Of a DNA stretch of 20,000 nucleotides, positions 8,415-17,449 are shown piece after piece. Both the position numbers and the translations under genes were made by a program. The stretch is taken from the NCBI GenBank assembly GCA_963848135.1, contig CAWKCK010000002.1, positions 489,684 to 509,683 on the forward strand, read 5' to 3'. Every line of letters begins with the position of its first letter. The first letter of the stretch is position 1. This DNA comes from an uncultured delta proteobacterium. Lineage in GTDB: Bacteria > Desulfobacterota > Desulfobacteria > Desulfobacterales > SG8-13. Below the pieces are notes generated by a model that saw nothing but the letters and a program-made list of their open reading frames with translations, was not told the DNA's origin and searched no databases.

Positions 8415-9137
8415 GTGGTTATGATTCATTCAGGACAACGTTTTCAGAATATCTGTTTTACCAGTAAAGGTTATCGGCTCAAAGGCGTTCTGCACCTGCC
8501 GGAGGTAGAATCCCCGCCAGTGGTCATCGGGGTGCACGGTCTGTTGAGCAACAAAGAATCTGCAAAACAGCGCGAACTCGCCCGGTTATGCATTGCGGCA
8601 GAAATAGCCTATTTGAGGTTCGATCACAGGGGCTGCGGCGGCAGCCAGGGCTTTTTCCCGGAGGTCACCACGCTGGAGGCCCGTGTGGATGACCTTATCG
8701 CCGCCGTTTCGTATATCCGGGCCCAACTGAATAAGGGCCGTATCGGCATTTTTGGCAGCAGTATGGGGGGAACCGTTTGCCTATCCGCAGCCAAACACAT
8801 TTGCCCCGATGCAATGGTGATATATGCCGCGCCACTGCAGAATCGTTCCATTCGAGGAGTGGAAAACGAAAGCGGTGAAAATGCCGTTCCCAGTTTACAC
8901 CGCCACCCATTTAATATTTCCAACCACATAGCGGGCCTGCGCAACCTTCTGATATTTCATGGGGACGCCGATAAGGTGGTCCCTTTCTCAGACGGACTCA
9001 GAATATACGATCAAGCCACCGCGCCGAAACGGTTTGTACGACAGCCAGGGGGCGATCACCCCATGAGCCATGAAAAGCACCAAAAAGCGTTCACCCGAAT
9101 AACCGTTCGGTGGTTTGAATCTTACCTGAATAGATAA
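8415..9137 (+). CDS. Alpha/beta fold serine hydrolase
   Basis: HG oxyanion motif, RFDHRGCGGSQG, nucleophile elbow GSSMGG, HGDADKVVP (Asp), GGDH (His). The start may be ATG 8421. Confidence 0.9.
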   Translation: MVMIHSGQRFQNICFTSKGYRLKGVLHLPEVESPPVVIGVHGLLSNKESAKQRELARLCIAAEIAYLRFDHRGCGGSQGFFPEVTTLEARVDDLIAAVSYIRAQLNKGRIGIFGSSMGGTVCLSAAKHICPDAMVIYAAPLQNRSIRGVENESGENAVPSLHRHPFNISNHIAGLRNLLIFHGDADKVVPFSDGLRIYDQATAPKRFVRQPGGDHPMSHEKHQKAFTRITVRWFESYLNR

Positions 9138-9240
9138 TCCATCAATACGTTTACGGTAAAACACTTAGTGTCTGCTATCGTCAAATAATTGCATTATTAT
9201 TAACTGTATCGAAAACCGGCCGTTAACGTGAGGAGATTAG

Positions 9241-10194
9241 ATGACAGACAATCATAGCAAAAAGTTTTTCCGGCGGGCGTTTGTCAAAACGGTCCTTCGG
9301 CGAACATTCGCCCTGCTCGCTCTCGCCGGCTTGATCTATGGACTGACGGCACTGATCTATGCCACCCGCACGATATTCAAGGTCAAGATGAATTATGCGG
9401 TCGTGCTGGAACGATTCGGTGGCAAACGCGAAGCCGTCACCGCGGTGGGATGGCATGTACGATTGCCCTATTTTACTCGTATCGAGCAGGAAGTCTCGTT
9501 GATGAATCAGCGCCTTTTTCTGGGAGGCACGATCGAACCGATTCGGATTATCTCCAAGGAGAATGTCGCTTTGTGGACATCAGCCCTGTTGACCTACCGT
9601 ATACGCGACCTCAATACCTGGGCCATCGAAAACCTCGACCCTCTGAATCTACTCCAGGGAGATTATGACGGCATCGTCAAAGACATCCTTCAGGCACAGC
9701 AGGTCAACTTGCTGATCAGTGACCGGGAATCGATCAAGGAGGATATTTTCAGCGCGCTGAAATCCCGTCCGATCAACGAAGGCGGTCCCACTTTGGAGGA
9801 AAAATACGGCATCGACGTCGTCAGCTTCGTTTTAAAAGATACCCGCTTTGGTGACAAACTGGTGGAAGCCACCGAAGAAAAGAAACGCCGGGAGTTGATC
9901 GCGGAGGCCGAAAATTATGCCGCTGACCAGGAAGCCAGCCGAATTCGCAAACTATACGCGGCCTACCTCGAGAGTATTGAATCGCTGCAGAAGGCCATCG
10001 GACGCTCGGATGGTGTCACCGATGTCGCCATATTTGAATTCTTGAATCAACAAAAATGGGCGGCGGCTTACGAAAAAAACCAGGGCGATCAACAGACCAT
10101 CGTTATCCAGAACACCCAGGGTTCACCGGCACTGACCATTCCGCCGATGGCCTCCGATTCGAAAGATCGCCAGGAGAAAGAGAATGCCCCGTAG
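9241..10194 (+). CDS. SPFH (band 7/stomatin/HflC-like) membrane protein
   Basis: GAGGAG RBS (9230-9235); one N-terminal TM segment, then the SPFH signature YAVVLERFGG...GWHVRLPYF, SKENV, YGIDV..F.LKD, followed by a charged coiled coil (EEKKRRELIAEAE). Confidence 0.9.
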   Translation: MTDNHSKKFFRRAFVKTVLRRTFALLALAGLIYGLTALIYATRTIFKVKMNYAVVLERFGGKREAVTAVGWHVRLPYFTRIEQEVSLMNQRLFLGGTIEPIRIISKENVALWTSALLTYRIRDLNTWAIENLDPLNLLQGDYDGIVKDILQAQQVNLLISDRESIKEDIFSALKSRPINEGGPTLEEKYGIDVVSFVLKDTRFGDKLVEATEEKKRRELIAEAENYAADQEASRIRKLYAAYLESIESLQKAIGRSDGVTDVAIFEFLNQQKWAAAYEKNQGDQQTIVIQNTQGSPALTIPPMASDSKDRQEKENAP

Positions 10195-13100
10195 GCTGAC
10201 CAAAGAAATCAAGTATATCCGCTTGCCGGAAGAACGTATTCATGAGATCCATGACCTCGTTTCCTCATGGCCATATGAAATTATGGTTTTTATGCGGGCC
10301 CGCCTCAACCAGTACCGACCACCATCGGATGTCGTCAACACCGTGCTGGAATTGATCTTATCCCTGTTCATGTCAGCGCCTAAGAAAAAATTCGATGTCC
10401 TCAAGAATCCGGATATCCTGACTGATTGGCAGAAACGATTCGAAATTTCGGGGCAGACTAATCCCCAGGAGGCATGGAACAAGATTCTGGAAAAGGAGAT
10501 ATCCGCCAAGGATTACATCTATCTGCTGTCACTGTTGGATCTCGAATTGACTAACGTGCATATCCCCGATGATCTGCGCACTCTTTTTGAAAAAATATAC
10601 CGGGCGCATATCCGCAAGGAATACATCTCCGATCCCTCGGTCCCCAAAGTGCCCTTGCTGTTAGTCATTGGTCCGAGTGGTAGCGGAAAAACCTCCACCG
10701 TCATCGAGGCCATCGAAAAGGTGATATTTGCCAATGAAATCCGGCCTGAAGTCGACTTGAAACAAAAAAAAGAAGAACTATTGGCCGGTGAACCCTTTTG
10801 GAAAACAATTGAGGAAATCGACCCCACCCTGTCGATGGAAATCGCCCGCCGAAAAAAAATAAAACTCTACAAACGGCTGACAAAAATCCCTTTGATTCGC
10901 AGCGTCTTCAAAAAAAGAATCGGCCGCGGCCTCTCCGACCTTCAGGAACAAGGCCTGATGGTCGACTGGTCAATGGTCACCCCAAACGATTACCAGACTG
11001 CCTTGGCGGGCGAACCCGGGAATTATTTCAAGAAAGCCCTTGGCGACCCGCGCAAGACCGCCATCCGGCACATCGAGGAAGCGCACAGTGCTTTCGGTAA
11101 ATCAAACGGACGTCAATCGGGAGTTGAACGTCAGCAGAGGTCATTGATCGATACCTCCAACATTATACTGGACGAAATCATCAACGGACGTCGCGATTGC
11201 CTGTTGATTGCCACCACTGATCAACCGGAACATTTCGACGCGGCTATTTACCGCCGTTTTGTAGAAAAAGGCAAGATCATCAAGGTGGCTGACTTTTGGA
11301 AAGCGCCCAAAAATCTGCGTGCAGTCGTACGCTTAGAACTACTGCGCCATGATATCCGGGTTGCCACCGCCCCTGACAACCGATGCCACCGGACAACCAT
11401 TTGCCTGGACCCTGTGGCTTTGGATCAGGCGGTGGAAAAACTCTATGTCGTTTTCGATGAGCGCTCATTAAAAATTATCCCCTCCTATGTCCGCAAACTT
11501 GTCGATTCAATCATTGAAATCAAAGGGGGGTTTGTGCCGGAGTACTTAGACGATGCGTTACTTGTCCGCCATGCATTCGAGCTGGTGGCCATGAATTCCT
11601 ATGGTGACCTCTTCGGCAAAGTTGTCGACCGCATGGACCGTAAAGTCAAATGGGAAGAATACCTCGGCGAGATTAAAAACGTCTTTTCAGAAATGGCCAA
11701 CAACTGTCTCCACTATGGCGTCAGCGAGGAAAAAGGCGTGGTGCTGAACGGCCCTCCCGGCAGCGGCAAAACGTTTCTGGCCCGTACCTGGCTGAGCGAG
11801 AATCAAGACATCCATGATATCTCGGCCAGCCCGAGTATGCTCCAGGATCCGGTCAATCCCATTGACGGGGCCATAGAAAACCTCGAGAAGCTCTACGATA
11901 TCGCCAAGATGATTGCCCCAACAGTGGTCTTCTTCGACGAGGGGGATTCTCTGGCACCCAAACGCAGCCCTTCAGGAGGTTCGCCTTCCGACAAGCTGAC
12001 CAACAAATTCCTGAACATCATCGATGGGGAAATACCGTTCAACCGGGTCTTCACTGTACTGACCACCAACCGGATCGACATACTCGACCCGGCCCTTATT
12101 CGCTCGAAGCGCCTGAAAGTCATGGAGGTGTCGGGCAACCTCCGCAAAAAGGACATCATCGGTATCATCCAACGTTCCCTCGATGGGGTCCCTTTGTCTG
12201 AGGGTCTCGACGCCAATACCATCCTTGATGTGGCGCAGCCCCTGTGCAACACACCGGCAGATTTCACGGCTTTTATAGAAAAGGCCTGCTCCCTGCGCAG
12301 CACCGAATATGAAGTCCTGGTGCGATTGCGTAATCTCGCAACCGGGGAACGTGAAATCATGACCAACTTTATCAAATTCAACTTTAAAACCCTGATCGGC
12401 ATCTTGGATGCCGTCAAGGCACCCCAAGACATACGGACCGTTGTAAAGGAGGATCCGGACGGTTTTCTCGACCACTACGAGAAAATAATCGAATTGCTGG
12501 ATACGATCAGGGATGTCAAAGAATATCCTCTGATGCCGTCGCACCTGCAGTCGGCCCGGCAGGAAATCTCACAGAGCCCTACGAAAAAGGGCAAGGTCCA
12601 GCTTGACGAATTTCTGGAAGCCGAATTAAGCCAGGAACCGCAGGTCGGTTTTATTATCGGTGTCGGCGCCAACGATGTTTCGGGTGTTCTGCTGCCGATT
12701 GCCACCAGCCTGACTTACAACCTGGGCCCAGAAAAGGTTATCGTTACTGGTGCGGTATCGACCGCAGCACCGGGAGCGGCCGAATTGGACATGGCGGTTA
12801 AGATGACCCAACAATCGGCGCAAGAAGCCCTCACAATGGTCAAAAACTATTTACAGGATCTGCAACCGAAGGTCAGCACCTCACGCCTGTTGGGTGACTT
12901 TCTGGATCACTACACGATTCATCACCAGCTCCTGAGTGCCTCATACAATGTCGGCGGTCCGTCCGCCGGCTACGCACTGGCGTTGAACACGCTCTCCACG
13001 CTTCTCTTGATGCCGGTTTACAACGATTTCGGTATTACCGGCGCACCGTGGACCAAAGGCGTCAAACGCGGCGAAGTCGGGGGTTCGGTCATCATCGGCG

Positions 13101-13603
13101 GCCACAAGAAGAAGACCCAAAAAGTTCTCCTGCACCTGCGGCGCATGTACATGCCGTTGCAGAATTATAAAGATCTGGAGTATGAATTCCTGGATAACTA
13201 CTGGGAACACGGCAAGGACATACTGGGCGTGACCCATTTCGGCGAATTGGTTCCGGAAGTGATCTATCTCGGCCCGGATTACGAACAAATTCTCCAGGAG
13301 CTGATCGCCCTTCGGATCGACTACAAGCGCCGCAAATTCAAGGGCCAACGCCCGCCGGATTCACAAAAAGAAAAAATACTGCATAGCAAGGACGTCTTGA
13401 AGATCCAAATGGAAAAGGAAATCGTCGCCCGTCTGGAAGCCTTACGACATTACCTTCGCTCGCCAACCCGTGATCCGCACCTCTCACTGGAAGAAATATT
13501 TCGAAAAAAACGGTCGCGCTTCGGAGGCTTCAGACCGCTGATGACTTTCCTGAAAAAACGGGGTGAGAAATTTTTCCGTACGGATGGGGATCGACTCCCC
13601 TGA
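10184..13603 (+). CDS. Tandem classic-AAA ATPase fused to a C-terminal Lon (S16) protease domain
   Basis: Two Walker A motifs (GPSGSGKT aa163, GPPGSGKT aa523), Walker B motifs HIEE and VFFDE, two SRH-like motifs, and a Lon-type region from about aa818 with GPSAG (S927) and GGHKKK (K977). AGGAG RBS; overlaps the SPFH stop by 11 nt. Confidence 0.88.
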   Translation: MPRRLTKEIKYIRLPEERIHEIHDLVSSWPYEIMVFMRARLNQYRPPSDVVNTVLELILSLFMSAPKKKFDVLKNPDILTDWQKRFEISGQTNPQEAWNKILEKEISAKDYIYLLSLLDLELTNVHIPDDLRTLFEKIYRAHIRKEYISDPSVPKVPLLLVIGPSGSGKTSTVIEAIEKVIFANEIRPEVDLKQKKEELLAGEPFWKTIEEIDPTLSMEIARRKKIKLYKRLTKIPLIRSVFKKRIGRGLSDLQEQGLMVDWSMVTPNDYQTALAGEPGNYFKKALGDPRKTAIRHIEEAHSAFGKSNGRQSGVERQQRSLIDTSNIILDEIINGRRDCLLIATTDQPEHFDAAIYRRFVEKGKIIKVADFWKAPKNLRAVVRLELLRHDIRVATAPDNRCHRTTICLDPVALDQAVEKLYVVFDERSLKIIPSYVRKLVDSIIEIKGGFVPEYLDDALLVRHAFELVAMNSYGDLFGKVVDRMDRKVKWEEYLGEIKNVFSEMANNCLHYGVSEEKGVVLNGPPGSGKTFLARTWLSENQDIHDISASPSMLQDPVNPIDGAIENLEKLYDIAKMIAPTVVFFDEGDSLAPKRSPSGGSPSDKLTNKFLNIIDGEIPFNRVFTVLTTNRIDILDPALIRSKRLKVMEVSGNLRKKDIIGIIQRSLDGVPLSEGLDANTILDVAQPLCNTPADFTAFIEKACSLRSTEYEVLVRLRNLATGEREIMTNFIKFNFKTLIGILDAVKAPQDIRTVVKEDPDGFLDHYEKIIELLDTIRDVKEYPLMPSHLQSARQEISQSPTKKGKVQLDEFLEAELSQEPQVGFIIGVGANDVSGVLLPIATSLTYNLGPEKVIVTGAVSTAAPGAAELDMAVKMTQQSAQEALTMVKNYLQDLQPKVSTSRLLGDFLDHYTIHHQLLSASYNVGGPSAGYALALNTLSTLLLMPVYNDFGITGAPWTKGVKRGEVGGSVIIGGHKKKTQKVLLHLRRMYMPLQNYKDLEYEFLDNYWEHGKDILGVTHFGELVPEVIYLGPDYEQILQELIALRIDYKRRKFKGQRPPDSQKEKILHSKDVLKIQMEKEIVARLEALRHYLRSPTRDPHLSLEEIFRKKRSRFGGFRPLMTFLKKRGEKFFRTDGDRLP

Positions 13604-13631: not shown

Positions 13632-14882
13632 TCAAGTGGGTTCAGTCCGCTTCAAAAGACGGCGCCGTAAATTGTTCAGGGCCGTGTAGGCAAACATTTT
13701 TTTGTTCAACTCACGGTCGTCGAAGCGAAAATTATACCGTCGCGCCTGACTGCCGGTAGGTCCCGATAGACCGATGCACACGGTCCCAACCGGTTTGCCC
13801 GTGGTACCGCCGGTCGGTCCGGCAATTCCGGTGGTCGACAGCCCGTAATCGGCGTCGGCTCTCAGGCGTACCCCTTCGGCCATCTCGATCGCCGTGTCTT
13901 CATGCACCGCTCCACAGCGATCGATCGTACGGGAATCCACCCCAAGGATATCAATTTTAGACTGATTGGAATATGTCACCGCACAAAATTTGAAATAATC
14001 CGAGCTGCCAGAGACATCCGTCAGCATATTGGCAATCAGTCCACCGGTGCAGCTTTCAGCCACTGCGATCGTCGATTCCAGTTGTCGCAGCAGATTCCCG
14101 ACCACCTCAGCCATCGATTCGCCGTCAATTGAAAGAATCCGATGCGCCAGTCGTTCTTTTATCCATGCGTCGGCATCTTCGGCATTCTTATCCGCATCGC
14201 CGTCGTATCCACTACGGATGCTGACCCTTACGCTTATTTCCGGAAAAACGGCGCAAAGCCCCAGACGCAGCTGTGGAAAAACCGTTTCGAAGCCGGAAAG
14301 CTGTTCAGCGACGGCCGCCTCGGTCATTCCAAATACGGTCAAATGTTTTTTAAGAGCGGATCGGCCTGAAGCTGAACGGATCATCGGCAACACATCATCT
14401 GAAAACATATGCCGCATTTCGATCGGAACACCAGGAAGGCAATATACGGTGCAGCCGTCGAGTTTGATATGAAATCCCGGAGCCGTGCCGATTGGATTGG
14501 AAATACATACTGATCCGATCGGCAACTGGGCCTGTTTGCGGTTGGCCGGACTATAGAGTCGCTGCCGTTTATTGAAGAAGGCGTTTACGGATTCAAGGGC
14601 TTCGCTGCTCAACGCCAATTCCACGCCAACGGCAAGGGCAACAGCCTCTGCGGTAACATCATCCTCGGTCGGACCAAGACCGCCGGTCACTATGGCCACA
14701 TCCGAGCGTTTAGAAATTTCTTTGAGTACGGCTGCCAACTCGTCAATATCATCACCCACGCAACAGTGACGCCGGACTTCGATTCCCGCCTCTTCGAGAC
14801 GCAGCGCGATAAAGGCGGAGTTTGTATCGATCACTGAACCGCTGCGAATCTCCTCACCGGTCGCAAGGATTTCTGCTCTCAC
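13632..14882 (-). CDS. cinA: CinA-like protein (MoCF-like pyrophosphatase domain plus NMN deamidase PncC domain)
   Basis: TGEE...DTNS, TGGLGPTEDDVT, NPIGTAPG, LPGVP; AVAESCTGG, GSSDYF, YSNQSK, TGIAGP.GG..GKPVGTV. Confidence 0.95.
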   Translation of the reverse strand: MRAEILATGEEIRSGSVIDTNSAFIALRLEEAGIEVRRHCCVGDDIDELAAVLKEISKRSDVAIVTGGLGPTEDDVTAEAVALAVGVELALSSEALESVNAFFNKRQRLYSPANRKQAQLPIGSVCISNPIGTAPGFHIKLDGCTVYCLPGVPIEMRHMFSDDVLPMIRSASGRSALKKHLTVFGMTEAAVAEQLSGFETVFPQLRLGLCAVFPEISVRVSIRSGYDGDADKNAEDADAWIKERLAHRILSIDGESMAEVVGNLLRQLESTIAVAESCTGGLIANMLTDVSGSSDYFKFCAVTYSNQSKIDILGVDSRTIDRCGAVHEDTAIEMAEGVRLRADADYGLSTTGIAGPTGGTTGKPVGTVCIGLSGPTGSQARRYNFRFDDRELNKKMFAYTALNNLRRRLLKRTEPT

Positions 14883-14942: not shown

Positions 14943-15743
14943 TCACGGATTCGGGGAATCCGGCGGGTGGAGAATAAACATGGCGGGTGTTACGGGCACG
15001 TTGGCCACGAACCGTTCGATATCGAGTTGCAGAACGGTTCCGGAATCGGTACTGAAACGCAGGCGCGCCGGGACCAGGTATCCCTGAATCGTCTGCATGT
15101 CAATGATGTCAACCTGGTAACGACGCGTACCGTCAGTACCGAAGATGTCGAATCGCAAAACAGTCTGCCGGTCTTTGCTCAAGTAAATTTTTTGCCTAAC
15201 AGACCACCACTTCTCCAGCACGAGAATATCGCCTTCACCGGACGCCCCTTTCTGCAGGAAGACCCGGCTGTGATCACGAATCGGCGTACGACCGGCCAGA
15301 ACCGCGGCGATGTCGCCGACAGTCGCCGGAATCCGAATAAGTCTGTCGAGGCGAGGCTCAGAGGTTTTAATCTTCCTGTAGGAACCGCCAGGATCCTGGA
15401 GATCGACGGCATAAAAATGACGTCCATCGGCCGCAATTTTTACAACTGGCCGACCTGAGACAAGAACAGCGATAGCGAGTTTATCCGGCAACGATGCGAT
15501 CCAGGCCGCCCTCTCCGATAGAGTTGGCGTATCAGAATCCCACAGCCGTATATGGCCGATGCCTTTGAAGGATGACAAGTTCGAATTGGTATGCGTAATC
15601 TCCTGCAATACTGACTCAGCGTCGCGCTGCGCTAAAACACTGTCGGCCGGTGGCATCGGTTTCAAGGTGGAACAGGCCGACATCAGGGGCAACAAAGCGG
15701 CAAGGGCAGCAGCAATGATACCGCGGTGAGACACGGAGATCAT
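14943..15743 (-). CDS. Lipoprotein, LolB-like/DUF4292-type
   Basis: Signal peptide with lipobox LMSAC; beta-rich body ending GYLVPARLRF...LQLDI; 4-nt overlap with the TPR gene. Confidence 0.6.
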   Translation of the reverse strand: MISVSHRGIIAAALAALLPLMSACSTLKPMPPADSVLAQRDAESVLQEITHTNSNLSSFKGIGHIRLWDSDTPTLSERAAWIASLPDKLAIAVLVSGRPVVKIAADGRHFYAVDLQDPGGSYRKIKTSEPRLDRLIRIPATVGDIAAVLAGRTPIRDHSRVFLQKGASGEGDILVLEKWWSVRQKIYLSKDRQTVLRFDIFGTDGTRRYQVDIIDMQTIQGYLVPARLRFSTDSGTVLQLDIERFVANVPVTPAMFILHPPDSPNP

Positions 15744-17449
15744 GGTTGCTCCAGCAGTTTCTTTATCTTCTCCTCTATTACCGGTCGATCCTTGTGTTTC
15801 TTTTCTAATGACCGCTCATATGCCTGGCGGGCGTTCTTCCTGTCTCTGGCTTTAAAGTACGCGTCACCAAGGTGCTCAAGGATAATCGGATCATCCGGTA
15901 CGAGTTCAACCGCTTTTTTAAGTGTTTCCAGAGCCTTGGCATAGTTGCCCTTTTTGTAGTAGACCCACCCGAGGCTATCGGTAATGTAACCGTCGTCGGG
16001 CTTATATTTGAGGGCTTCTTTGACTAACCGCTCGGCCTCATCCAGGTTTTTACCGAGATCGGCATATGTATACCCGAGATAGTTCAAGGCATTGGCATCC
16101 TCTGGATCGAGTTTGATGACGGTCTTCATGGCTGTAATCGAGTCTTCTTTGCGACCCCATTTGTCATAAACAACCCCTAATCGGAAGTAGTATTTGGGAT
16201 CCTCCGAATTGATCTGTATCGCTCGTTGTAACAGCTGCTCCGCTTTATCATACTCTTCACTATCTTCGTAGAATGTACCGAGGTAATACAAGAATTCCGC
16301 ATTATCCGGGTACTTTTTAATTACTTCCTCCATCAGATCGACAGATTCCTGCATCTGCCCCTTCTCGCGATAAAGAAAAGCCAGATGAACCACAGCATCC
16401 TGGTAGAAGCGGGATTGCGGCGTTACTTTTGAAAAGTGCGCCAAGGCCTTGTCAGGGTCCTTAATACCATAGTATGCAACTCCGGCAATATGGTGAAGGT
16501 CGGGGTTGTCCGGTGCGCCTTTTAGGAGTCCTTCCACTACGATAATGGCGTCTTGATACCTGTCAGGTTCGAGATAGGTCTGGATGACTTTAAGAACGAC
16601 ATCGAATTCATTACTGCTTCTGAGGCCCAAATCCTGAAAAGTCTTTTCAGCATCCTTCCGCCGCCCTTCCTTCCAATAGATTAGGCCAAGCTCGAGCGCT
16701 GCGCGTATATTTAAGGGGTTCTTTTTTAGTATGTCTTCGTAAGTACGGACGATAATGTCGGTTTTACCCTGGTCTTTATAGAGTTCGAGAAGTTCGAAGC
16801 GAGGTTCGAGCAGAGAGGGTTCGATCTCCAGAGCTTTCTTAAACGCCTGTTCAGCTTGGGCATCCAGGCCCTGCTCGGCGTAAATTTTACCCAGAAACAA
16901 ATTCCCCGTATACGAATCGGGAAAGTTTTTGACCAGTTCTTCGAATACCCCGCGAGCGTCCTCAATACGATTTTCGCGCAGATAAATGCCGCCGAGGAGC
17001 AAATAGGCGTTTTGTTGGCTTTGGTCGATCGCGATTACTTTTTTGTATGCCCGGATAGCATCGTCGAGTTGGCCCTGAGATTGACGAATTCGACCGTACA
17101 GGATCAGCATCTCCACATCTTCCGGATAATCTTTTAAAATATCCTCGATGACGGACAATGCGCTCTGTTGATCCTTCAACTGGACAAATTCCATGGCGAT
17201 CTCTTTTTTCAAGTAGAGCGATTCCGGATCGAGTTCAATGGCTTTTTCCAGCAATGCCGCCGCCTGCTCCCTCTCGCCGTTCTGTTTCGCCAGCTGTGCT
17301 TCGGTGTAGTAATAATATGCATTATCGGGCCGATCGATCTCAGCGGTCTGCACCCTCTCCCTGCGGTGCGGGCCTTCTGTGGTAGCGCACCCTATTATTA
17401 ATGCCCCGGCTATTGTAGCAGCGGCCAGCCGCTGTAGTAATTGTCGCAT
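15740..17449 (-). CDS. Tetratricopeptide-repeat lipoprotein
   Basis: Lipobox LIIGC; many TPRs; conserved C-terminal NALNYLGYTYAD, GYITDSLGWVYYK and ILEHLGD motifs. Confidence 0.92.
   Translation of the reverse strand: MRQLLQRLAAATIAGALIIGCATTEGPHRRERVQTAEIDRPDNAYYYYTEAQLAKQNGEREQAAALLEKAIELDPESLYLKKEIAMEFVQLKDQQSALSVIEDILKDYPEDVEMLILYGRIRQSQGQLDDAIRAYKKVIAIDQSQQNAYLLLGGIYLRENRIEDARGVFEELVKNFPDSYTGNLFLGKIYAEQGLDAQAEQAFKKALEIEPSLLEPRFELLELYKDQGKTDIIVRTYEDILKKNPLNIRAALELGLIYWKEGRRKDAEKTFQDLGLRSSNEFDVVLKVIQTYLEPDRYQDAIIVVEGLLKGAPDNPDLHHIAGVAYYGIKDPDKALAHFSKVTPQSRFYQDAVVHLAFLYREKGQMQESVDLMEEVIKKYPDNAEFLYYLGTFYEDSEEYDKAEQLLQRAIQINSEDPKYYFRLGVVYDKWGRKEDSITAMKTVIKLDPEDANALNYLGYTYADLGKNLDEAERLVKEALKYKPDDGYITDSLGWVYYKKGNYAKALETLKKAVELVPDDPIILEHLGDAYFKARDRKNARQAYERSLEKKHKDRPVIEEKIKKLLEQP

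Follow-up and report, generated by a model that had tools for sequence, protein, structure and literature searches.

Proteins of the SPFH superfamily are found in all domains of life and, to our knowledge, a clear molecular job has been assigned to few of them. Their best understood role is the gating of FtsH-type AAA proteases. Precedents for SPFH proteins as partners of proteases are described in passages of PMC2636767 and PMC13086221, among them the stomatin-NfeD pairs (Pyrococcus PH1511/PH1510; QmcA-YbbJ), in which a stomatin-like SPFH gene and the gene of a serine protease partner form a two-gene operon. Here we analyzed a 20,000-nucleotide (nt) stretch of DNA from an uncultured member of the Desulfobacterales (contig CAWKCK010000002.1, positions 489,684 to 509,683 of the forward strand), hereafter the window, in which a gene for a 317-amino-acid (aa) SPFH protein directly precedes a gene for a 1139-aa protein predicted to combine two AAA modules with a Lon-type peptidase, hereafter AAA-Lon. 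The pair makes up a dedicated module, with products that are synthesized and inherited together. As judged from sequence comparison and a structural model, the 1139-aa protein combines the components of an ATP-dependent protease in a new arrangement: an N-terminal domain of the recognition type, two stacked AAA rings and a Lon Ser-Lys peptidase chamber.

The SPFH and AAA-Lon genes form a conserved pair

Both genes lie on the + strand of the window and start with ATG, the SPFH gene being the open reading frame (ORF) 9241-10194 and the AAA-Lon gene the ORF 10184-13603. They share 11 nt (10184-10194), such that the AAA-Lon start codon (10184-10186) stands 8 nt past an AGGAG motif (Table 1) and ahead of the SPFH stop codon, TAG 10192-10194. 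A first-pass annotation, made from the letters alone, had reported this overlap together with the AGGAG motif, and had described the unit as closed by a convergent cinA gene; the coordinates and the CinA match bear out both statements, and all the other coordinates and features that it named are correct as well. Upstream of the pair, an alignment of eight close loci shows that the AGGAG before the SPFH start codon is invariant and that the remaining intergenic sequence is variable.

The same annotation had proposed, as its first test, to examine whether the SPFH neighbor is conserved beside homologues of the 1139-aa protein. Species-representative genomes yielded 39 loci with the large protein, 28 of which are informative (gene start and at least 950 nt upstream) and 11 of which are cut by contig ends. 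In 28/28 informative loci, the gene immediately upstream, in the same orientation, is an SPFH gene. This arrangement recurs in each of 11 distant loci (nine in other families of this phylum, two in metagenomes; 52-68% identity, G+C 52-71%), where the two genes either overlap or are separated by a gap of at most 52 nt. Co-occurrence extends to whole genomes: when the phylum was sampled evenly (401 genomes), the same 10 genomes were found to carry both genes, 391 to carry neither, and none to carry just one. In this sample, SPFH matches are absent from the range between E 3.9e-116 and the limit of 1e-30, which indicates that the SPFH partner is dedicated. Of 41 close relatives, 24 carry the pair and 16 carry neither gene, the remaining genome (83% complete) having an SPFH fragment only, at a contig end.

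The pairwise identities of the two proteins correlate with r = 0.96 (190 pairs from 20 loci), a value which, since the 20 loci are kin, means joint inheritance without partner swapping and nothing beyond that. Apart from the pair itself, the neighboring genes change from clade to clade. No SPFH-protease fusion was found among the best 120 matches listed or the best 150 representatives. Taken together, these results show that the pairing far exceeds chance and that a functional link between the SPFH protein and AAA-Lon is strongly conserved.

One locus (L031:5801-7995) is a deletion variant in which the SPFH ORF is shortened to 79 aa, comprising the first 58 residues followed by another frame, and in which a 659-aa ORF starts inside the end of the first AAA domain and retains the second AAA domain and the Lon domain only; either decay of the locus or an error of assembly could account for this variant. 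A genome from the genus of the window contains two complete pairs (G001:C28:15172-18588 and G001:C7:65965-69381), with proteases 81-82% identical to that of the window; given that its contamination is estimated at 9%, the two copies may come from two strains in one bin. A second and different Band_7 gene (L106:9595-10623; E 7.6e-28) lies upstream of one distant pair, in divergent orientation.

Predicted architecture of the AAA-Lon protein

An AlphaFold2 model of the 1139-aa protein, built on an alignment of 33 sequences, reached a mean predicted local distance difference test (pLDDT) score of 82.1 and a predicted template-modelling (pTM) score of 0.63. Sequence and model together give the following predicted layout: an N domain, a divergent AAA domain (D1), a classical AAA domain resembling those of Cdc48 and Rpt proteins (D2), a Lon S16 peptidase and a basic tail (Table 1). 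The invariance counts given below refer to the same 33 sequences, whose identity goes down to 33%. The N domain has no Pfam or NCBIfam match, and its residues L25 and R85 are invariant, archaeal-type relatives included.

The two AAA domains are each marked by a Walker A motif, the first at residue 163 and the second at residue 523. By sequence alone, only the P-loop of D1 is detected; aligned by hhalign with D2 (probability 72%, E 3.3e-5), D1 matches it in the Walker B, sensor 1 and arginine regions. Its Walker A residues K169 and T172 and the residue at the Walker B position, E299, are invariant, R357 and R358 nearly so. An insertion of about 80 residues (approximately 185-265), mostly helical and charged (net +5), lies between Walker A and the pore-loop region. 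Foldseek searches with the whole model placed p97 and Cdc48 on top (E 1.4e-20, 650-730 columns), and the tandem-AAA chains of NVL, Rix7 and p97 superpose on model residues 123-832 over 470-490 residues (Z of about 20, root-mean-square deviation (rmsd) 9-10). Profile comparison and model thus support D1 as a genuine AAA domain. D2 finds its best NCBIfam matches in CDC48, PAN and FtsH and its best PDB sequence match in p97 (E 3e-40), and Rpt subunits superpose on it with Z 22 and an rmsd of 2.5-2.7 over about 255 residues; K529, E586, N629, R640 and R643 are invariant. At the aromatic position of the D1 pore loop the clade of the window has Leu (TALAGE), a clade at 53% identity has Trp (TAWAGE), and most archaeal-type relatives also carry Trp (e.g., TMWYGE); the pore loop of D2 has no aromatic residue in any member.

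The peptidase assignment draws on the Lon_C match, on Lon peptidase (P) domains in the PDB, which match at E 1.9e-4 to 0.03 with the serine of the GPSAG motif aligned, and on structure: the predicted unit of D2 and peptidase superposes on Yersinia pestis Lon (6on2_D; Z 20.2, 406 residues), on LonB (3k1j; Z 19.8, 405 residues) and on yeast PIM1 (Z 19.9, 461 residues). The GPSAG serine is S927, as first annotated. The predicted general base is K977, the invariant lysine, rather than the K that opens the GGHKKK run; 49 residues separate it from S927. Given that the catalytic residues are invariant across the 33 sequences, both ATPase sites and the peptidase look active. In agreement with the earlier description of the protein as two AAA modules joined to a Ser-Lys Lon peptidase, this architecture draws support from sequence, from profile comparison and from a confident model.

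Beyond the peptidase, the model has helices at residues 1031-1052 and 1059-1092, where E1077 and R1083 are invariant, and residues 1115-1132 form an amphipathic basic window; the final basic tail is missing from the 53% clade and from archaeal-type relatives. The protein has no membrane segment: the highest hydropathy over 19 residues is 1.66, within the Lon domain, and outside the peptidase core the hydropathy of a membrane helix is nowhere reached.

The partner is a stomatin-like SPFH protein

The 317-aa protein is assigned to the SPFH/Band-7 superfamily by its match to Band_7 (PF01145; E 1.1e-15, 58.6 bits versus a cut-off of 23.6), which covers profile positions 2-176 of 176. It has no match among NCBIfam models, those of HflK and HflC included, and none among PADLOC families. 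When its family profile was compared with PDB sequences, stomatin (E 0.0037-0.014) and QmcA (E 0.052) were the nearest solved chains, and up to E 1 the matches included no chain of HflK, HflC, prohibitin or flotillin, which places the protein, by this comparison, remote from every solved SPFH protein.

SPFH orthologues encoded beside AAA-Lon genes are 54-96% identical in pairs, and 14 of them, with a mean column identity of 68%, were aligned. All 14 have a tail of 21-25 residues with 4-7 lysines or arginines (K/R), in which R12 is invariant, followed by a hydrophobic anchor with invariant Y33 and Y40. Helices at residues 213-253 and 261-280 are assigned by DSSP in a low-confidence model of the monomer; the stretch from E212 to K279 is rich in invariant columns, with long invariant runs in the helical region. 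After the last helix, 13/14 orthologues have a short hydrophobic motif that ends in Pro.

Table 1. Features of the locus and of its two products. Positions are those of the window, except for the two HSP20 genes, which are given in their own loci.
Feature	Residues	Positions	Strand	Remarks
GAGGAG, Shine-Dalgarno-like		9230..9235	+	5 nt ahead of SPFH start codon
SPFH protein, basic N-terminal tail	1-22	9241..9306	+	7 K/R, 1 D/E
SPFH protein, single hydrophobic anchor	23-41	9307..9363	+	Kyte-Doolittle mean 2.08 over 19 residues
SPFH domain proper	47-232	9379..9936	+	Pfam envelope
SPFH protein, helical region after SPFH domain	~213-280	9877..10080	+	long invariant stretches
AGGAG, ribosome-binding site of AAA-Lon gene		10172..10176	+	within 3' end of SPFH gene
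AAA-Lon, N domain	1-149	10184..10630	+	beta hairpin then helices (model)
AAA-Lon, D1, divergent AAA	150-490	10631..11653	+	Walker A 163-170
AAA-Lon, D2, classical-clade AAA	491-760	11654..12463	+	PF00004 residues 519-646, E 2.4e-27
AAA-Lon, helical linker	~761-808
AAA-Lon, Lon S16 peptidase	809-1030	12608..13273	+	Lon_C residues 809-999, 27.4 bits versus cut-off 21.1
AAA-Lon, S927 codon, predicted nucleophile	927	12962..12964	+	invariant in 33 sequences; Pro before Ser (LonA-type context)
AAA-Lon, K977 codon, predicted general base	977	13112..13114	+	sole invariant lysine after invariant GG (G972, G973), 33 sequences
AAA-Lon, C-terminal helices and basic tail	1031-1139	13274..13600	+	net charge +12
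alpha/beta-hydrolase gene		8415..9137	+	Hydrolase_4 E 9.8e-18, Peptidase_S9-like; 103 nt upstream of SPFH gene
cinA		13632-14882	-	Pfam CinA E 3.4e-53; convergent, 28 nt beyond AAA-Lon stop
HSP20		L107:1197-1727	-	abuts AAA-Lon gene
HSP20		L108:4464-4919	-	9 nt from AAA-Lon gene

Neighboring genes and distribution

The alpha/beta-hydrolase gene precedes the pair in 20/28 informative loci of the order and in 0/11 distant loci, and is therefore a lineage-specific neighbor outside the conserved core. A scan for promoters and terminators gave no signal over shuffled expectation: the 103-nt gap before the SPFH gene is without a promoter-like site, and no terminator-like site lies between the hydrolase and SPFH genes. 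The hydrolase gene and the pair may share a transcript in this lineage. The surroundings in the window are housekeeping genes, with no mobile or defense genes among the flanks. Beyond cinA lies a 266-aa ORF (14943-15743, - strand) that has a lipoprotein-like N terminus and matches no Pfam family; it shares 4 nt with the end of an upstream gene for a 569-aa TPR-repeat protein (15740-17449, - strand). Elsewhere, two of nine distant loci scanned (L107 and L108, from different families) have an HSP20 gene immediately after the AAA-Lon gene and in the same orientation; such neighbors hint at protein quality control.

A large protein database holds at least 773 relatives of AAA-Lon, the best 120 of which are 1107-1154 aa long and 69-98% identical; the hosts named among these 120 are Desulfobacterales and other Thermodesulfobacteriota. 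For the SPFH protein, the best 120 matches listed from the same database are 80-100% identical. Among 1.84 billion cluster representatives, the search's own table adds just a handful of full-length groups of AAA-Lon, at 35-40% identity. Two of these groups are named as DPANN archaea, Candidatus Woesearchaeota (MBR9683063.1, on a contig of 14,280 nt) and Nanoarchaeota (MCG2719043.1, on a contig of 24,483 nt), and belong to the relatives at 33-39% identity; all of these groups share the AAA and Lon_C architecture and the invariant residues. Eight other multi-AAA proteins (860-1019 aa) from the representative search were without a Lon domain (0/8). A metagenome scan with an alignment of the archaeal type returned 44 loci, three of them family members (L052, L053 and L054), all of the bacterial type; the corresponding scan of viral contigs gave generic AAA matches only.

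A search of a language-model protein atlas also returned two archaeal clusters, of 118 and 110 members, from Thermoproteota and Bathyarchaeota; their proteins, 909-919 aa long, combine AAA with Lon_C and may be a shorter sister family. The pair, with a protease 77% identical, is also present on a 6.7-kb contig (L042) in a bin labeled Gammaproteobacteria, a label that is probably a binning error rather than a sign of a wider host range.

Possible functions of the module

The reading that we favor, and that we regard as evenly balanced between right and wrong, is that an SPFH assembly localizes or gates a hexameric, two-ring AAA-Lon protease at the membrane, for the quality control of membrane-associated proteins. 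The AAA-Lon hexamer would unfold its substrates and feed them into the Lon chamber, and the SPFH protein, held by its one hydrophobic anchor, would assemble at the membrane into the ring or cage typical of SPFH proteins. This assembly would recruit, confine or gate the soluble protease there, so that the pair could remove damaged or unassembled membrane-associated proteins, by analogy with HflK/C-FtsH and prohibitin/m-AAA. Candidate contacts are the basic tail and the invariant helical region of the SPFH protein and, on the protease, the N domain or the basic C-terminal tail. The HSP20 neighbors and the housekeeping context fit such a role.

Several observations weigh against it. Conserved adjacency denotes a functional link and says nothing of its nature. 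AAA-Lon has neither a membrane segment nor a signal peptide, and since D2 is without an aromatic pore residue and D1 has Leu at that position here, strong unfolding activity is not assured. The model of the SPFH monomer is poor (pLDDT 51.9), so that the cage is taken from the family and not observed. The main difficulty, which the first-pass annotation had not raised, is topology: in 14/14 SPFH orthologues, the last 15 residues before the anchor contain 4-6 K/R, versus 2-4 in the first 15 beyond it. Under the positive-inside rule, such a bias would leave only the 22-residue tail in the cytoplasm and put the SPFH domain in the periplasm. Stomatin and QmcA, the nearest solved relatives, face the cytoplasm according to passages of PMC2636767. 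The charge bias and these relatives could both be accommodated by a monotopic hairpin of the stomatin type, which would leave tail and domain alike in the cytoplasm; the hydrophobic segment, only about 20 residues long, weighs against such a hairpin. Were the anchor nonetheless monotopic, tail and cage would be cytoplasmic and the soluble hexamer could dock on the cage.

One-to-one co-occurrence and translational coupling suit a dedicated substrate equally well as a scaffold, and the SPFH protein could thus be the main client of AAA-Lon, whose AAA rings would remodel or disassemble the SPFH polymer and whose Lon domain would trim or degrade it, setting the lifetime of SPFH membrane domains. 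This would resemble the action of a Vps4-type ATPase on its polymer, or that of the Pyrococcus NfeD protease, which cuts the C terminus of stomatin. D2 belongs to the classical AAA clade, home of disassembly enzymes, and the hydrophobic motif ending in Pro is a candidate recognition or cleavage site. Passages of PMC13086221 report an SPFH protein cut by its operon partner, and passages of PMC11188069 link archaeal SPFH proteins contextually to Vps4-type ATPases. We nevertheless consider this arrangement unlikely: a complete tandem-AAA protease of 1139 aa would be costly to make for a single client, the HSP20 neighbors better suit general proteostasis, and the topology problem remains if the SPFH domain is periplasmic. 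Alternatively, the two proteins could serve one stress response without touching each other, the SPFH protein organizing the membrane, possibly at its outer face, and AAA-Lon acting as a quality-control protease in the cytosol; their co-expression would then reflect only a need for both under one condition. The lack of any membrane segment in the protease, the charge bias predicting an outward SPFH domain and the HSP20 gene in the same operon at two loci all agree with such a scheme. Co-regulation alone, however, rarely preserves adjacency, gene order and, mostly, overlap across 52-100% identity and G+C of 52-71% while the other neighbors change, and the SPFH subfamily occurs without the protease in 0 of 442 genomes, apart from the one contig-end fragment; we judge this scheme distinctly unlikely.

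The first-pass annotation had named membrane protein quality control, stress response and defense as possible roles, and the last of these has the least in its favor. As an anti-phage or conflict system, the pair would comprise an SPFH membrane sensor and an AAA-Lon effector. Its patchy distribution (10/401 genomes of the phylum) would suit such a system, as would the DPANN relatives, which suggest transfer between domains, and weak PADLOC matches to the IetA ATPase (best E 1.8e-11). These matches, however, like those to TRIP13, mad8 and MkoA, run through AAA cores and P-loops only (residues 504-646), and the SPFH protein has none; no plasmid or phage copy was found at E 1e-20, and the flanks are housekeeping genes free of mobile or defense genes. 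Unlike fast-turning defense islands, the locus in many genomes of the order remains flanked by the hydrolase gene and cinA, with proteins 67-98% identical. A defense role is thus very improbable.

Returning to an SPFH assembly that localizes or gates the protease, we tentatively advance, with confidence that falls somewhat short of even, a broader proposal: that the module represents a new protease class, in which a type II classical AAA unfoldase joined to a Lon peptidase would work only with its own stomatin-like SPFH assembly, as a third independent SPFH-AAA protease alliance, present in Thermodesulfobacteriota and DPANN archaea. If this is true, a second, unrelated ATP-dependent protease would have an obligate SPFH partner, making compartmentalized proteolysis at SPFH assemblies a recurring design that extends beyond FtsH, and the Lon family would gain an architecture in which a first AAA ring is followed by one of the Cdc48/Rpt type. 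Because the SPFH subfamily is found with one partner only, the relationship between an SPFH protein and its client would be unusually easy to test here.

Comparison with known systems

A full-text literature search (subscription journals not covered) returned neither a pair of SPFH and AAA-Lon proteins nor a Lon protease with two AAA domains, and no family or model describing the pair was found in Pfam, NCBIfam or PADLOC, consistent with the earlier statement that no described system with this pairing was known to its author. A close likeness lies with HflK/C-FtsH and prohibitin/m-AAA, in which, as in this module, an anchored SPFH protein stands alongside an ATP-dependent protease with an AAA motor of the classical clade. 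The module has a single SPFH gene in place of the HflK/HflC paralogue pair, and its product is by sequence closer to stomatin and QmcA than to HflK/C. Compared with FtsH, AAA-Lon is without a transmembrane or periplasmic part, has two AAA domains instead of one, and carries a Lon_C Ser-Lys peptidase with no match to the zinc peptidase family Peptidase_M41; its matches to FtsH models reach 56.4 and 54.5 bits, below the respective cut-offs of 600 and 1008.

With Lon (MEROPS S16: LonA, LonB, LonC and LonBA), the enzyme shares Lon_C with its invariant Ser and Lys, the Pro before Ser as in LonA, and a predicted unit of D2 and peptidase that superposes on Lon chains with Z of about 20 over 405-461 residues. 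It differs from them in the additional D1 and the new N domain that precede this unit, and in D2, which scores with CDC48, PAN and FtsH models, whereas Lon models match the peptidase part only. According to passages of PMC9569914, exactly 42 residues separate Ser from Lys in LonA and LonB, as against the 49 counted here. In contrast to LonA, with its extended substrate-binding region, there is no LON N domain among 16 Pfam matches, two AAA domains replace the single AAA+ module, and the lon equivalog TIGR00763 reaches 34.3 bits versus a cut-off of 608, over residues 805-999 only. LonB has, within its AAA+ module, a membrane-anchoring insertion with a transmembrane segment that is absent here, the insertion in D1 being charged (net +5), and LonC has an ATPase-like domain deprived of essential ATPase residues, which in AAA-Lon are intact (K169, K529, E299, E586, N629, R640 and R643, all invariant).

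The tandem arrangement of D1 and D2 recalls Cdc48/p97/VAT, NVL and Rix7, which give the best Foldseek matches of the whole model. Unlike Cdc48/p97, however, AAA-Lon has no CDC48_N double-psi barrel domain (TIGR01243 scores 84.5 versus a cut-off of 802.65, in D2 only), its D1 is highly divergent and bears the insertion of about 80 residues, it carries a fused peptidase at the C terminus, and its pore loops are without aromatic residues in this clade. The two-gene operon of a stomatin-like SPFH gene and a serine protease partner is shared with the stomatin-NfeD systems described in passages of PMC2636767 and PMC13086221. Here, however, the SPFH gene comes first and the partner is an ATP-dependent AAA-Lon rather than a membrane protease of the NfeD/ClpP type; no NfeD family member was found among the neighbors in the window or among 26 neighbors scanned at distant loci. 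Taken together, these comparisons place the enzyme, by its P domain and predicted dyad, in the Lon peptidase family, in which it fits no described subfamily, and suggest by analogy that the module works like the SPFH-AAA protease alliances, yet as something other than a member of the HflK/C-FtsH system.

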